A stretch of DNA of 26,623 bases from a virus (taxonomy: Duplodnaviria > Caudoviricetes), in the IMG/VR virus record IMGVR_UViG_3300045250_000014, positions 1 through 26,623 of that record; one strand, written 5' to 3'. This document shows positions 20,790 to 26,623 of this stretch, piece after piece. A program made the position numbers and the translations under genes. Position 1 is the first letter of the stretch, and each line of letters starts with the position of its first letter. The notes under the pieces were generated by a model. That model saw only the letters and a list, made by a program, of their open reading frames with translations. It did no database searches and was not told where the DNA came from.

Positions 20790-21440
20790 ATGGCTGACAC
20801 CAACCCCACCCCCGCTGACGGCGCATCCAACGACGGCGCCGCACAGCCCCAGACCCCGGAGGCCGGGCAGACGCAGACCACGCCCCCGACCCCCGACCCC
20901 GCACCCGCCGCGCAGAAGGTCGAAGACCTGCCCGACTGGGCGCAAACCCTCGTGCGCGACCTCCGCGCCGAGAACGCCTCAGCACGCACCAACGCCAAGC
21001 AGACGGCAGCGCAGGAAGCCACCGACTCCGTCACCGAGAAGATCGGCAAGGCACTCGGCCTCATCAAGGACGACGACGCCGACGCACCGTCCGTGGAAGA
21101 CCTCACCAAACAGGTCTCCGCAGCGCAGGCCGCCTCCCGGCAGGCCGCCATCGAACTCGCCGTGTACCGCGCAGCATCCCAGCACGACGGAGACCCCGCC
21201 GCGCTCCTCGACTCCCGGACCTTCCTGGCGAAGGTCACGGACCTCGACCCCACCTCTGAGGACTTCGCCACCAAGATCGGCGACGCCATCAAGGAACAGG
21301 TCGACACCAACCCCAAGCTCAAGGCGAGCGGCCCGGCGCCCTCCCGCAGTGGTGGGGAGATGGGCGGCAAACAAGAACAGCAGGCGGGCCAGTCCCCCAC
21401 TGAACTTGCCGCGCTCATCCGCAAGAACCGCATCTACTGA
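20790..21440 (+). CDS. Capsid scaffolding protein
   Basis: Low-complexity N-terminus, LPDWAQ..VRDLRAENASAR, LLDSRTF; upstream of the capsid gene. Confidence 0.85.
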   Translation: MADTNPTPADGASNDGAAQPQTPEAGQTQTTPPTPDPAPAAQKVEDLPDWAQTLVRDLRAENASARTNAKQTAAQEATDSVTEKIGKALGLIKDDDADAPSVEDLTKQVSAAQAASRQAAIELAVYRAASQHDGDPAALLDSRTFLAKVTDLDPTSEDFATKIGDAIKEQVDTNPKLKASGPAPSRSGGEMGGKQEQQAGQSPTELAALIRKNRIY

Positions 21441-21454
21441 CAAGGAGGGCCATC

Positions 21455-22420
21455 ATGGCTCATCAGTTCCTCAAGCCCGAGGTCATCGGCAATGCCGCCC
21501 TCGGACTCGTCAAGGAGGACACCATCCTCCCCAACCTGGTCTACCGCGACGCGGAGACCAACTATCAGGGCAACGTCGGCCCCCGCGGCGACAAGGTCCT
21601 CATCCCCATCCGTGGCGCCCTCGGCGACGCCCGAGAGCTCGCCTGGCGTGACGCGACCCGCAAGATCGTCACCGACGAGATCAAGGACGCCACCGCTGAG
21701 ATCAAGCTCGACACCTACCTGTACAAGGCTGTCGGGCTGCTCCGTGAAGAGCAGACCCTCGACATCGCCGACTACGGTGCACAGGTCCTCACCCCCATGA
21801 CCAACTCCGTCGCCTACGGGGCAGAGAAGCGCATCGCAGCCGCCATCGAGGGCGCCCCCTACACGGAGACCATCACTCTGGCCGACGCAGAGCGTGGCAC
21901 CTACAACGCCCTCGTGGACGCACGGAAGTTCCTCCGCAAGCACGGTGTCCCCCGCGACGGCCTGGTCGCCATCGCAGGCACCGAGGCCATCGCCCGCGCC
22001 CTCAAGGATCCCACGCTGATCGACGCGAACCGCTCCGGCGACTCGAACACCCTGCGTGAGGCCGAGATCGGACGTATCGCCGGGTTCAGCCTGTACGAGT
22101 CCGACGTCATCGACGACGACTCGATCTACCTGTTCCACCCGACCGCATTCCCGACCGTGTTCCGCGCACCGGCCCCGGCCCGCTCGGTCCCGTTCTCCGC
22201 GTCCGTGTCCGGTGGCGGCATCGCCATGTCGTACTGGGAGTCCCTGAACTCCGACAACGACTCTGACCGCGCCTTCCTTGGCACGTTCTTCGGCGTGAAC
22301 ACCTACTCGGACCCGGTCGACGCAACCGACCCGGGTGGGACCAAGGAGTTCGTGCGTGCCATCCGCATCGCAGGTCCGAACGCCGGCACCCCCGGTGAGG
22401 GCGACGAGTCGGGAAAATAA
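21455..22420 (+). CDS. Major capsid protein
   Basis: GDKVLIP, VPRDG, LREAEIGRIAGF; position and size. Confidence 0.9.
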   Translation: MAHQFLKPEVIGNAALGLVKEDTILPNLVYRDAETNYQGNVGPRGDKVLIPIRGALGDARELAWRDATRKIVTDEIKDATAEIKLDTYLYKAVGLLREEQTLDIADYGAQVLTPMTNSVAYGAEKRIAAAIEGAPYTETITLADAERGTYNALVDARKFLRKHGVPRDGLVAIAGTEAIARALKDPTLIDANRSGDSNTLREAEIGRIAGFSLYESDVIDDDSIYLFHPTAFPTVFRAPAPARSVPFSASVSGGGIAMSYWESLNSDNDSDRAFLGTFFGVNTYSDPVDATDPGGTKEFVRAIRIAGPNAGTPGEGDESGK

Positions 22421-22460
22421 CGGCCCGCGTCAAGGCCACGATCTGACCTTGGCGCGGCTG
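22411..22460 (+). promoter_or_regulatory. Putative -1 frameshift cassette of the capsid gene
   Basis: In-frame G GGA AAA directly before TAA; hairpin 22421-22460; -1 frame reads ITARVKATI*. Confidence 0.7.
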
Positions 22461-22482
22461 ATCCCGCAGAAGGGAGGCCCGC

Positions 22483-22857
22483 ATGCTGACCTACGCTGAA
22501 CCGTCCGACCTCCCCGAGGATCTGCAGACAGTGAGTGGCGTGGACGCCCTGCTGGCGTCGGCGTCACTCATCGTGGACATGCTGGTCCGTGGGGCACGGT
22601 ACGACACGGACGCTGATGGCCGGCCGACCGACGAACACCTAGCCCAGGTGTTCCGGGACGCCACGGTCGCGCAAGTGGTCTGGGCGGACGAGACCGGTGG
22701 TGGCGCCACGAGTGCCGCCCCGTCCTCGCTCGGCTCCCTGCACTTCGATGCGACCGTGAGTGCGGATGGTGACCCGGTGCCACCTGGTGTGGGACCGGAC
22801 GCCTACCGGCTCCTGCGTATCGAGGGTCTGGTCACCTCCCGTGTGAGCGTGCCCTGA
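22483..22857 (+). CDS. Head-tail adaptor
   Basis: YA...LL..AS..VD...YDTD.DG.P...AT.AQV pattern; follows the capsid gene. Confidence 0.75.
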   Translation: MLTYAEPSDLPEDLQTVSGVDALLASASLIVDMLVRGARYDTDADGRPTDEHLAQVFRDATVAQVVWADETGGGATSAAPSSLGSLHFDATVSADGDPVPPGVGPDAYRLLRIEGLVTSRVSVP

Positions 22858-23183
22858 TGCCGCCCCGCATCCCCGCCCGCCTCCTCCCCCACACGGTCCT
22901 CGTGAAGCCCTTCCTCGGTGCTGGGCCTTACGGGGACCGGTGGGGTGAGCAGGTGGAAGTGAAGCGCTCCCTGGTGGAGGACAAGGTACAGGTGGTTCGG
23001 GACGCCGACGCCCGCGAGGTGACCTCGTCGGCGACCGTGTACCTAGAACCCCGCACCCTGCCCGCCGGATCCCTGGTGACCGTATGGGCTGGCACCCAGT
23101 GGGAGATCGAACGGAAGGCCCTGGCGGTCTCCCATTTCGACCACCCCGGCGGCCTGTCCCACATGGTCGTGTACCTCGAGTAG
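22857..23183 (+). CDS. Head-tail stopper
   Basis: LLPHTV...G.GPYG...VRD...EV.S; gene order. Confidence 0.75.
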   Translation: MPPRIPARLLPHTVLVKPFLGAGPYGDRWGEQVEVKRSLVEDKVQVVRDADAREVTSSATVYLEPRTLPAGSLVTVWAGTQWEIERKALAVSHFDHPGGLSHMVVYLE

Positions 23184-23192
23184 GAGGCGACC

Positions 23193-23531
23193 ATGGCACT
23201 GAACTGGTACGGGCCGAAGGTCACGCAGGCCGTGACCGGCGCCGCCATCCAAGGACTCAACCAGGCCGCCGAATACGTCCGATCCCAGACCGTCCCCCTC
23301 ACCCCGCTACGTGACGGGGACCTCCGGAACTCGTTGCACGTCTCCGAAGCCACCACGGGCGACCCGGTCGCCGCCGTGTTCACGAACCTCCCCTACGCCG
23401 TCCGGCAACACGAGGAACTCAACTACCGGCACCGCGACGGCCAAGCGAAATACCTCGAGGTCGCAGCCAACCAGTCCAGGGAGCAGGTCTCCCGGATCGT
23501 CACCACCGCAGTGAGGAGGGCCACCCAGTGA
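23193..23531 (+). CDS. Neck protein (HK97 gp10-like)
   Basis: P..DGDLRNS, PYAVRQHE, GQAKYLE. Confidence 0.8.
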   Translation: MALNWYGPKVTQAVTGAAIQGLNQAAEYVRSQTVPLTPLRDGDLRNSLHVSEATTGDPVAAVFTNLPYAVRQHEELNYRHRDGQAKYLEVAANQSREQVSRIVTTAVRRATQ

Positions 23532-23986
23532 CCACAGTGAATATGGACGTCACCGACTCCCTCACCCTCGACCTCGCCGCCGGGTTCATCGACCTCATGG
23601 TCAACGAAGCCCACGTCGGCACCTGGAAAGAGGACGGGTACAAGAACGGTGACCTCGGCATCGTGATCGGCGCCATGCCACAAGCACCCGCCGACCTCAT
23701 CGCCATCACCCCCTACGTCGCGCAAGTCGACGTGGAACCAGGTGTGGACGTGCGTGCCTTCCAGGTCCGCATCCGGTCCGGGTCACGCGACCCGAGACCC
23801 TGCATCCAAGCCGTGGACAGGCTCCACGACACCCTCAACGGACTCGGCCCGGTCACCCTCGGTGGCCACTCCGTGCCCCTCATCTGGCGAAACAGTCTCG
23901 CCGACCTCGGTCTCGACACCTCCGACCGGTACGAGATCACCGACAACTACTACCTCTACGTAGACAAGGAGCCACACCATGGCTGA
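23528..23986 (+). CDS. Tail terminator
   Basis: MP.AP...IAITPY, QVRIR, LGLD...RYE.TDNY; precedes the tail tube gene. Confidence 0.75.
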   Translation: MTTVNMDVTDSLTLDLAAGFIDLMVNEAHVGTWKEDGYKNGDLGIVIGAMPQAPADLIAITPYVAQVDVEPGVDVRAFQVRIRSGSRDPRPCIQAVDRLHDTLNGLGPVTLGGHSVPLIWRNSLADLGLDTSDRYEITDNYYLYVDKEPHHG

Positions 23987-24491
23987 CAACACCACCGCCC
24001 TCGCGTCCAAGCTCGCCCGACGCTACGCCGTCGAGGTGAAGCCCACCGGATCCGACGACACCGCATGGGTCCGCGTCAAGGGCATCAACTCCCTCACCCC
24101 CGGCCTCGACCAGAACTTCGAGGACTCCACCGACTTCGACAACGACGGCTGGACTTCCTCCGAGAAGACCTCCCAGGGCTGGAACCTCGCCCTCGGCCTC
24201 ATCGAGAAGGTCGGCCAGGCGGACAAGAAGCAGGACCCCGGCCAGCTGATCCTCGAGAACACCCAGGACAAGTTCGGCGGCGAAGGCTTCGTGGACGTCC
24301 GCTGGGGCGAGCGTGACGGCGAGATCGCCTACACCGGCAACGCTGCAGTGCAGTGGGAGCCGCAGGGTGGCGGCGTCACCGACCTGTCCTCCGTGAACGT
24401 GACCCTCACCGGAAACGGGGCCCGCAAGAAGCTGACCCCGAACCCGTTCAACACGGGCGACTCCGGCCAGGGCGCCAACCCGGGGGAATGA
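23979..24491 (+). CDS. Major tail (tube) protein
   Basis: LARR..VEV, DFDNDGW, DPGQ, VTLTGNG. Confidence 0.88.
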   Translation: MADNTTALASKLARRYAVEVKPTGSDDTAWVRVKGINSLTPGLDQNFEDSTDFDNDGWTSSEKTSQGWNLALGLIEKVGQADKKQDPGQLILENTQDKFGGEGFVDVRWGERDGEIAYTGNAAVQWEPQGGGVTDLSSVNVTLTGNGARKKLTPNPFNTGDSGQGANPGE

Positions 24492-24535
24492 CAGCCCGCG
24501 TCTCCGCCACCGTCTAAGTGGCGGGGACGCGGCTG
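24482..24535 (+). promoter_or_regulatory. Putative -1 frameshift cassette of the tail tube gene
   Basis: In-frame G GGG GAA directly before TGA; 18-bp hairpin 24492-24535; -1 frame reads MTARVSATV*. Confidence 0.65.
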
Positions 24536-24571
24536 CCCCGCTCCCGCAAGTACTGAAGGAAGGAAGCCACT

Positions 24572-24880
24572 ATGGCTGACTGGACTACCCCGCTCCCTGC
24601 GGACGCCAAGGTTGGCGACGACGGGCACCCTGACCTGCACAACCAGATCAAGGCGAACGTCGTCGAGATCCGCAACCTGGTGGACTCCGGCGCACTCAAC
24701 GGCAAGGACGGTGCTGCTGGCGCCAAGGGTGCCACCGGGGCCGCTGGCGCGAAGGGCGACAAGGGCGACAAGGGCGACACCGGGGCGACCGGAGCGAAGG
24801 GTGCGGACGGCAAGGATCTGTCCGCCGAACTCGCCGCGCTGACCGCCCGCGTCGCAGCACTCGAAACCCCAGCAGGCTGA
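24572..24880 (+). CDS. Small collagen-like (13 Gly-X-Y) virion protein
   Basis: GDDGHPDLHNQI head, GKD...GKD triplets, LAALTARVAALE coiled coil. Confidence 0.8.
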   Translation: MADWTTPLPADAKVGDDGHPDLHNQIKANVVEIRNLVDSGALNGKDGAAGAKGATGAAGAKGDKGDKGDTGATGAKGADGKDLSAELAALTARVAALETPAG

Positions 24881-24973
24881 GCCTGCCCAACTGACCGGTC
24901 CCCGGACGTCACGCCCTGGTGGGTGCGCGGCGCCCGGGGACCACCCCAACCCACCACCAAAGGAGACACCACC

Positions 24974-25507
24974 ATGTCTTTCAACGCATACCAGGCCTTC
25001 CGAGGCCCCATCAAACTCCCCATCGGCGGCAAGGAATACACCCTCCCGACCGTGTCCGCCGAACTCGGCGTCCGCCTCACCCTCATCGCCGAACGATCCT
25101 CCGAGATCATGCGCATCGCCATCCACAACGACGAAGCCAGACAGGCCGCCGAAGCCAACGGTGAACCCGCACCCGAACCGGAACCGATCCCCGACTTCCA
25201 GATCGACGGCGTCGAATCCGTCGACGACATGAACAAGGAACTCCTCGGCCCCCTCTACGACGAAATGGTCGCAGACGGCGTCCCCTTCGAAGCCCTCGTC
25301 CTCGCCGGGCAGACCGCAACACACGACTTCCTCTACGGGCGCGAAGCCGCCGAGGCCTACTGGAACTCCGGTGGCGACCCAAAAGCAGTAGCGGAGACGC
25401 TCCCCGCAGCGAACGTTTTCAGTCAGAGTACGGGCGCGGAGAATACGACCCCGACACCGGACTCTACGAGTGGTACGAAGCCCCAACCGAAGAAGTCGAA
25501 GAGCTAA
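24974..25507 (+). CDS. Tail assembly chaperone (G)
   Basis: LPIGGKEY..P, LGPLYDEMVADGV; AAGGAG RBS; contains slippery C CCA AAA. Confidence 0.85.
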   Translation: MSFNAYQAFRGPIKLPIGGKEYTLPTVSAELGVRLTLIAERSSEIMRIAIHNDEARQAAEANGEPAPEPEPIPDFQIDGVESVDDMNKELLGPLYDEMVADGVPFEALVLAGQTATHDFLYGREAAEAYWNSGGDPKAVAETLPAANVFSQSTGAENTTPTPDSTSGTKPQPKKSKS

Positions 25508-25725
25508 ACGGCTCCCACCCCACCATCACCTACACGGCCATGGTGGAGCAGTGGCGGCTCCTCGAGGGCGCGTTCACGCAGGTCCTCGGCATCACTCTCG
25601 AGGACGAGTTCCCGAACCGCTCCTGGCGGTGGTTCACCACGCACGTGAACACCCTCATCAACACGGACTGCGCGTTCGCTCGCGCCGTCGCACCCGAGCC
25701 GAAGAGTGCACCCGAAACCGAATAA
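25378..25725 (+). CDS. Tail assembly chaperone -1 frameshift extension (GT)
   Basis: CCCAAAA at 25378-25384; -1 frame open from 25384 (SSSGDA...YGRGEYDPDTGLYEWY) into ORF 25540-25725. Confidence 0.85.
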   Translation, partial: PKSSSGDAPRSERFQSEYGRGEYDPDTGLYEWYEAPTEEVEELNGSHPTITYTAMVEQWRLLEGAFTQVLGITLEDEFPNRSWRWFTTHVNTLINTDCAFARAVAPEPKSAPETE

Positions 25726-26504: not shown

Positions 26505-26623
26505 TGTCAAGTCCTGGGTTTTGTTGAGGGTCAGCGGTTGTTGAGTTTCAGGCCGCGGTGGCGGTCTGGTCGGGGCCGGTGTGTCCGGCCCAGTATTGGG
26601 CTTCGACTTCCGTAGGGGTGCGG
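26505..26623 (-). mobile_element. IS3-family insertion sequence, right end (partial)
   Basis: Terminal TGTCAAGTCCTGGGTTTTGTTGAGG (minus strand ends ...CA); adjacent transposase C-terminus. Confidence 0.8.
26548..26622 (-). CDS. IS3-family transposase OrfB C-terminal fragment
   Basis: RTPTEVEAQYWAGHTGPDQTATAA* matches the TP.E.E..Y ending of IS3 OrfB proteins. Confidence 0.75.
   Translation of the reverse strand, partial: RTPTEVEAQYWAGHTGPDQTATAA

Follow-up and report, generated by a model that had tools for sequence, protein, structure and literature searches.

Tailed phages are known to recode the ends of their virion genes. Lactobacillus phage A2 and the Listeria phages A118, A500 and PSA carry frameshifts at the ends of both the capsid and the major tail genes (PMC5009743), where recoding in the last codons gives a minor, C-terminally extended form of each protein and where several of the shifts are -1 events with a 3' structure. 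In Bacillus phage SPP1 the decorated fraction of the tail tube depends on a frameshift (gp17.1/gp17.1*, 3:1), a decoration that is dispensable for infection (PMC8718954), and ORF10 of Enterococcus phage phiEf11 has a slippery run at its stop followed by a stem-loop, with a predicted -1 extension of 21 residues whose peptides went undetected by mass spectrometry (PMC5221750). The G/GT frameshift of actinophage tail-assembly chaperones uses the same class of slippery heptamer as the locus described here, GGGGGAA being the sequence of all ~1000 'fivetwo' motifs at annotated SEA-PHAGES frameshifts, which were annotated without experimental test (PMC10885494). Here we analyse a 26,623-nucleotide stretch of a Caudoviricetes virus (IMG/VR record IMGVR_UViG_3300045250_000014; the whole stretch is hereafter called the window), in which two cassettes, one at the end of the major capsid gene and one at the end of the tail tube gene, encode a short common tag of nine residues in the -1 frame. 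Judging from sequence comparisons, these cassettes probably tag a fraction of the capsid and tube subunits by -1 frameshifting, and the tag is a predicted docking site for the N-terminal domain of a separate fibre protein.

The locus differs from each of the described systems. The extensions of A2, A118, A500 and PSA are whole domains, mostly Ig-like and attached in cis, whereas the extension here comprises 9-10 residues rather than an Ig or FN3 domain, and the displayed part would be a separate fibre. SPP1 is alike in that the frameshift sets the proportion of decorated tube subunits, but it fuses an FN3 domain, on the tail only, with no tag and no separate partner in the accessible account. 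phiEf11 shares the slippery run at the stop, the stem-loop and the short predicted extension, but the slip site and sequence are different and the accessible part of the report mentions no partner. The chaperone frameshift joins two chaperone domains that stay outside the virion, whereas here the site ends structural genes. Twin capsid and tail frameshifts are thus known for Ig domains; the present observation is real, and a tag with a separate fibre partner would be a variation on this known recoding strategy. A full-text search of the open literature, outside which subscription journals largely fall, returned no description of a fibre that partners with a short tag added by frameshifting.

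Cassette structure and conservation

Rereading the window bore out the core of a preliminary description, which had placed a slippery site, a stop and an open -1 frame at the ends of both genes (Table 1). The capsid gene ends TCG GGA AAA TAA and the tail tube gene CCG GGG GAA TGA, and the -1 frames read ITARVKATI* and MTARVSATV*, respectively (asterisks denote stops). Both of the proposed twin slippery sites are present, but G GGG GAA, at the tail gene, departs from the canonical XXXYYYZ form and belongs instead to the 'fivetwo' motif of annotated SEA-PHAGES frameshifts. GGGRRAH followed by a stop occurs nowhere else in the 26.6-kb window on either strand. The hairpins that had been placed directly after each 0-frame stop were also recovered, with 0 of 200 shuffles folding as well as the real hairpin for the capsid and 0 of 200 for the tail tube, and the -1 stop of each cassette lies in or at the hairpin loop.

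Comparison with other phages gave a total of 15 cassettes in eight phages (identical contigs collapsed), on unrelated capsid and tail-tube families, and supported the earlier proposal of a -1 frameshift cassette on both genes with a short common tag: by sequence and conservation, both the capsid and the tail gene appear to be recoded in seven of the eight. The consensus layout is GGGGGAA or GGGAAAM, a stop and a covarying hairpin. The fivetwo type GGGGGAA accounts for 12 of the 15 heptamers and the canonical GGGAAAC (2) and GGGAAAA (1) for three, always directly 5' of the stop (15/15), and the stem begins 3-5 nucleotides past the heptamer, with folding energies of -19.8 to -39.1 kcal/mol. The tag has nine residues in 14 cassettes and ten in one; in those 14 the -1 stop falls at codon 10, whether it is TGA (11), TAA (2) or TAG (1). 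The tag consensus is [MIL]-T-[AD]-[RL]-[YV]-x-x-x-[YIVF]-COOH, and the motif TARVxAT, first taken as the conserved element, did not hold up, since Tyr occupies positions 5 and 9 in 11 of the 15 tags. The carriers belong to at least three capsid families (phrog_283, 777 and 10) and at least five tube families (phrog_3884, 476, 792, 117 and 2645), a count that leaves out the L198 capsid.

The cassettes were reached by several routes. Tail-tube and capsid homology led to the tags LIDRYAGTY* and LTDRYADAY* in L006 and to MTDLVRDTF* and MTDRVLATI* in L020, and a tag-constrained pattern led to MTALYTGAY* on an unrelated tube gene in L026. Eight cassettes were recovered without any constraint on the tag. 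Six of them came from a search with the fibre N-terminal domain (see below) alone, namely MTARYLPSY* and ITARYLPSY* (L191), MTDLYRETY* and MTALYRETY* (L202), and MTDRYDESYR* and INDLYQSSY* (L198); the other two are in L190, where MTDLYRASY* on an unrelated capsid gene was found with a tag-agnostic pattern (slip site, stop, downstream MA(x)W start) and MTALYGARY* on the tube gene by reading the contig. The tag-agnostic pattern matched at least 119 loci, of which the 45 best by folding energy were read and the others compared with the fibre hidden Markov model (HMM). Among the 119 listed, eight are fibre loci, from four phages; the remaining loci were dropped as chance, none beyond the best 45 matching the HMM. 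On the coding strand of eight scanned loci (up to 16 kb), every GGGRRAH-plus-stop site is a cassette. A pattern scan of metagenomes recovered the L006 phage again, and an alignment search of metagenome contigs returned no tail-tube relative. A pattern match at L045, with no coding context and no fibre gene, was dropped as chance.

The tag region carries the signature of a coding sequence. Guanine or cytosine (GC) occupies positions 1, 2 and 3 of the tag codons in 63, 49 and 90 of 105 cases, and the corresponding fractions in the capsid gene are 0.65, 0.47 and 0.88. Across twin pairs, 12 of 29 changed codons are synonymous in the -1 frame, whereas the two other frames give 3 of 28 and 4 of 28. 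One difference between the twins of the window, K/S, is non-conservative. The mean BLOSUM pair score over the 15 cassettes is 14.4 in the -1 frame versus 6.7 and 9.8 in the others, and twin tags share 6.1 of nine residues within one phage versus 3.6 across phages. By these signals the -1 frame is the coding frame of the tag region. The compensatory stem changes noted between the twins recur as double changes in eight of the nine consensus base pairs (15 cassettes), and by this covariation the hairpin itself is under selection. The preliminary description had named, as the case that would speak against it, homologs in which the hairpin persists although slippery site and -1 reading frame are gone; none of the homologs retains a hairpin cassette next to the stop but lacks both the slippery site and the nine-codon frame. 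As regards the beta-strand-like character proposed for the tag, its averaged hydrophobic moment is higher at 170 degrees (0.32) than at 100 degrees (0.21), but Asp, Gly or Glu is frequent at positions 3 and 7; an amphipathic helical tag is not supported by this moment.

A fibre gene travels with the cassettes

A small fibre gene lies 69-95 nucleotides behind a cassette in all eight cassette phages, after the tail-tube cassette in six and after the capsid cassette in two. The comparison supports the earlier idea that the likely partner is a decoration protein encoded on its own, here identified as this fibre; no evidence emerged for the host factor that had been proposed alongside it. The fibre proteins of the eight phages have only their first 40 residues in common. 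A profile search with this domain returned 135 representatives, in which it is mostly N-terminal (within the first 48 residues in 121 of the 134 examined), and the cargo behind it, in the 24 scanned, includes collagen, tail repeats, beta-helix tailspikes, GDSL esterases, deacetylases and glycine-rich domains. A conserved N-terminal module with variable cargo is the pattern of a particle-binding module. Matches to the fibre domain in genome samples number 2 of 401 order-wide and 3 of 401 family-wide.

No Pfam or PHROG family covering the N-terminal domain was found, a PDB sequence search gave no match below E 0.5, and a search of the ESM Atlas gave only leads below 0.9. The AlphaFold2 monomer of the domain consists of coil and one helix (residues 20-39) with no strands; at 40 residues, and with no Ig/FN3 Pfam match, it does not resemble an Ig/FN3 beta-sandwich lacking a strand. 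A complex prediction with three N-terminal domains and three tag peptides scored 0.00, with no controls folded and with a 30-residue natural -1-frame translation, 21 of its residues upstream and non-physiological, as the partner; this score speaks neither for binding nor against it. At three positions of the fibre, phages with V-type tags (window and L020) have L/K/N where those with Y-type tags have other residues, but since the two V-type phages are 85-88% identical, this co-variation amounts to a single contrast. A third exact TRACNGCCCGCGTC match, at 24840 of the window, is the in-frame LTARV of the C-terminal heptads of the fibre and looks coincidental. The C-terminal LTARVAALE of the fibre was considered as a template or partner of the tag and rejected, as L026 keeps LTARVEALE with a different tag.

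The same motif in frame in Rhodococcus phages

Weak tblastn matches gave entry to the Rhodococcus phages. NiceHouse gp52 and gp53 and Trina gp63 and gp65 start with the domain (HMM E values of 6e-8 to 4e-5, among 4915 segments). In the first 99 kb of NiceHouse, with 713 open stretches, the strict motif occurs once, at the end of gp54 (YTEVYSESY*); in Trina the motif closes gp64 (YTELYLDSY*) and gp66 (YTELYQATY*). Three further phages (Grayson, Weasels2 and E3) were then checked as a test of this link. Grayson gp72 and Weasels2 gp70 and gp72 (phrog_4574, major tail protein), lying among domain-bearing genes, end TSGYYDSY*, LPLYDSFY* and TTGYYDSY*, so that three of the in-frame motif-ended proteins are tail-tube-like; the full nine-residue end of one such protein is MTSGYYDSY*. 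In NiceHouse, Trina, Grayson and Weasels2, all of low GC content, domain-bearing genes are thus interleaved with proteins that end in frame in the tag motif. No cassette is present at the motif-ended genes of these four phages, nor at the capsid and main tube genes of NiceHouse.

These tailspike clusters (NiceHouse gp52-54, Trina gp63-66, Grayson gp69-74, Weasels2 gp68-74) are like the cassette phages in carrying the same N-terminal domain on fibres or tailspikes and in their interleaved motif-ended proteins, and differ in that the motif is carried in frame, by small proteins of phrog_20413 and by paralogs resembling the tail tube. The records of the Trina and Weaselvirus clusters do not annotate them as a docking system, and the accessible part of 10.1101/2022.11.23.517428 contains no passage on tailspikes. 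Tagging a paralog of the tube protein and frameshifting on part of the tube subunits would be two routes to the same result, and this genomic context is the strongest argument that the tag is a ligand of the domain.

As a separate observation, small Rhodococcus phage proteins of phrog_20413 share an N-terminal ETAQERF...W...ERKxRGWD (L207:6813-7385, L207:8825-9004, L204:28256-28441, L206:6123-6314). Some of them end in the tag motif and one, of 190 residues, does not; they are candidate adaptors between virion and tailspike.

A proposed tag and docking mechanism

We infer both the frameshifting and the binding of the tag to the fibre. A ribosome stalled at the stop and hairpin would, very probably, slip by -1 on GGGGGAA or GGGAAAM, after which it would read ten codons through the 5' arm of the stem and terminate in the loop. 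Head and tail would each incorporate a tagged minority of subunits, whose tag would lie exposed at the end of a flexible acidic linker, where the N-terminal domain of a trimeric fibre would quite probably bind tag positions 1, 5 and 9, and probably the free C-terminus too. Collagen repeats form trimers, an established property on which the trimeric state of the fibre is based. Frameshift efficiency would determine the number of fibres per particle, and one fibre gene would thereby decorate both head and tail. Trina- and Weaselviruses would use the tag and domain pair without a frameshift, having dedicated small proteins and tail-tube-like paralogs that carry the motif in frame.

In a broader form, towards which we lean only slightly, actinobacterial phages may share a portable pair of tag and catcher, the former a nine-residue C-terminal motif and the latter a 40-residue N-terminal domain. 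The tag would be placed on any capsid or tube protein by a 50-nucleotide frameshift cassette, or in frame on dedicated paralogs, the catcher would carry any fibre, tailspike or esterase, and the frameshift rate would set the stoichiometry. This suggests a different logic, in which recoding makes only a socket, so that one gene decorates head and tail, and in which the module moves between unrelated structural gene sets; if true, it would be a plug-and-socket standard for virion decoration, with the frameshift rate as a stoichiometry dial. It would also explain what a domain family that has no name (135 clusters at 50% identity) is for, hint at the way tailspikes are attached in cultivated Rhodococcus phages and reveal tags that are invisible to gene callers, and the pair of nine and 40 residues could serve as a display handle.

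Several observations weigh against a tag that docks the fibre. With the first seven cassettes the -1 frame was not better conserved than the others (11.7 vs 12.1 and 15.0), its advantage appearing only at n=15, and because the cassettes are related, their counts are supporting patterns and not independent events. The tags of the window itself (V5, I/V9) are of the minority type, and in the L026 phage, which does have the fibre, the tail gene carries a cassette and the capsid gene none. Weak fibre-domain matches occur at L047 and, after the capsid gene, in L016 and L021 (E about 2e-3), with no tag-like C-terminus in the examined loci of the latter two. The domain matches in the Weaselviruses (Grayson and Weasels2) are partly weak (E 1.5e-5 to 0.18), Grayson gp69 and Weasels2 gp68 (phrog_20413, YSELYEE(I/V)YE*) fit only with one extra residue, a relaxation made after inspection, and gp125 of the myovirus E3 gives a weak match (E 1.5e-3) with no tag ending in 32 kb. 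Furthermore, gene adjacency shows association, not contact.

Alternative explanations

Unlikely, but the best placed of the alternatives, is a real frameshift with a real tag whose purpose lies outside the fibre, be it to engage a factor on the host surface, to be modified, to signal degradation or to join subunits, while the fibre gene only co-travels. Four closer relatives (L014, L015, L016 and L021) have a similar heptamer and hairpin, but their -1 frame encodes 37-41 acidic, P/E-rich residues and no tag, so that frameshifting in this group would have uses without a fibre, and the linkage could equal co-transfer of one small DNA module. However, the second cassette, ~2 kb from the fibre gene, keeps a near-identical tag, the motif ends in-frame proteins beside domain-bearing genes in the four low-GC Rhodococcus phages that lack a cassette there, and no glycosyltransferase was found among the 40 open reading frames scanned in the window, which is a fragment. 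Homologs end in GE, GK or GN in 15 of 21 tubes and 17 of 54 capsids, which together with the P/E tails suggests that end-of-gene slippage is widespread in the lineage and that the nine-residue tag is one cargo of it. The acidic Pro/Glu extension sites in the related tail-tube genes are at L014:3190, L015:4475, L016:4499 and L021:4496.

Very unlikely is a restart of translation at an ATGA overlap, with no frameshift, yielding a free nine-residue peptide or coupling to the next gene. Ten of the 15 tags open with an ATG overlapping the stop, and the codon-level signals would be identical, but the other five open with ATA or CTG while the slippery heptamer is present in all 15, and GGA AAA/C and GGG GAA interchange at one place. 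Initiation should moreover suffer where the start codon coincides with a strong hairpin, and the motif found in the Rhodococcus phages closes a longer protein.

We give hardly any credence to a duplicated terminator or RNA-processing hairpin with the nine-codon frame as a by-product. Strong hairpins do follow many capsid and tail genes, including most of 11 distant Micrococcaceae tube genes and of six annotated actinophages, but these control hairpins mostly begin several bases beyond the stop, and a GGGRRAM heptamer at the stop was found in none of the 11 tube genes and six actinophages. The cassettes, by contrast, have three-base GC periodicity, synonymous twin changes and three stop codons exchanged at one position. 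An intrinsic terminator would combine a hairpin and a U run with no coding constraint, and the sequence holds no T run 3' of either window stem; actinobacterial terminators can, however, be without U runs. Just as improbable is a covalent fusion of the structural protein to the fibre by read-through, bypass of the loop stop or later protein ligation: the tail -1 frame of the window is in register with the fibre ATG (81 nucleotides apart) and its -1 stop lies in the hairpin loop, but such register is found in just four of eight phages, near chance, so that bypass fusion was rejected, a second in-frame stop precedes the fibre ATG in the window, and the other cassette lies too far away to be joined in cis to the fibre gene.

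Genomic setting of the window and further observations

Table 1 Features of the window that bear on the cassettes and the fibre.
Feature	Position	Strand	Basis
Slippery heptamer G GGA AAA and 0-frame stop TAA (capsid)	22411..22420	+	Sequence; the window has two such sites
-1 frame tag ITARVKATI and stop TGA	22417..22446	+	Translation; homologous tags in other phages
Stem-loop directly 3' of capsid stop, putative frameshift stimulator, 5' arm codes for the tag	22421..22460	+	-24.2 kcal/mol, z -4.05; covariation over 15 cassettes
Slippery heptamer G GGG GAA and 0-frame stop TGA (tail tube)	24482..24491	+	Sequence; GGGGGAA motif in PMC10885494
-1 frame tag MTARVSATV and stop TAA	24488..24517	+	Translation
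Stem-loop directly 3' of tail-tube stop, -1 stop inside the loop	24492..24535	+	-36.3 kcal/mol, z -7.28
Small fibre protein, 102 residues: N-terminal domain, collagen repeat, C-terminal heptads; putative tag partner	24572..24880	+	PF01391 at residues 44-80; tail-fibre PHROGs; co-occurrence
Conserved 40-residue N-terminal domain MAxW..LP..A..GD.GH..DHN.I...I.E.R..VD, candidate tag-binding anchor	24572..24691	+	Alignments; 135 representatives; AlphaFold2 monomer
Major capsid protein, 321 residues, acidic G/P/E linker ...PGEGDESGK at end	21455..22420	+	phrog_283, E 5.7e-42; PF11651
Tail tube protein, 170 residues, end ...GDSGQGANPGE	23979..24491	+	phrog_3884, E 4.5e-37

The window represents part of a siphophage or prophage of high GC content, and the phage is actinobacterial. 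Its genes run from terminase, portal and scaffold through the major capsid gene, four connector genes, the tail tube gene and the collagen-containing fibre gene to the tail chaperones and a tape-measure gene that is cut off near 26506, the capsid and tail tube having been identified via PHROGs. The closest named relatives of the capsid and tube proteins are Galactobacter and Auritidibacter records, and annotated phage isolates show <40% identity. The public runs containing the stretch are recorded as ant metagenomes; positions 21400-25100 show zero letter differences from contigs of four such runs, a single DNA run among which may be the source of the window itself. The public RNA runs contain the region as contigs of flat depth, which carry no information on expression. 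Contigs of the L026 phage occur in the runs with the window phage too, as do those of a further phage whose fibre ends in a similar way at its C-terminus (loose contig ends at window positions 24824-24870), so that several fibre-bearing phages share one habitat.

Where the tape-measure gene is interrupted, the reverse strand at 26506-26623 encodes ...RTPTEVEAQYW...* and runs out in a stretch that looks like a repeat, which resembles the end of an IS3-type transposase. The junction is identical in other contigs of the same phage, and similarity to L020 ends there. At 25378-25725 there is a candidate slip site of the tail-assembly chaperones, C CCA AAA, ~42 codons upstream of the chaperone stop; the -1 frame after it is open up to 25725, and GAC CCA AAA is retained in relatives.

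Elsewhere, the capsid gene at L198:1000-2446 has a C-terminal beta-rich domain before its cassette and a frame break upstream, due to an error in sequencing or to a second site of recoding. At L016:2255-2442, a 55-residue gene with a weak fibre-domain match lies in the -1 frame of the preceding capsid gene, with no stop between the two and no evident slippery site. P0125, P0136, P0137, P0139, P0147 and others have two to three tandem GDxGHxxDHN domains per chain followed by a glycine-rich domain, and this subfamily is possibly a single-chain mimic of the trimer.

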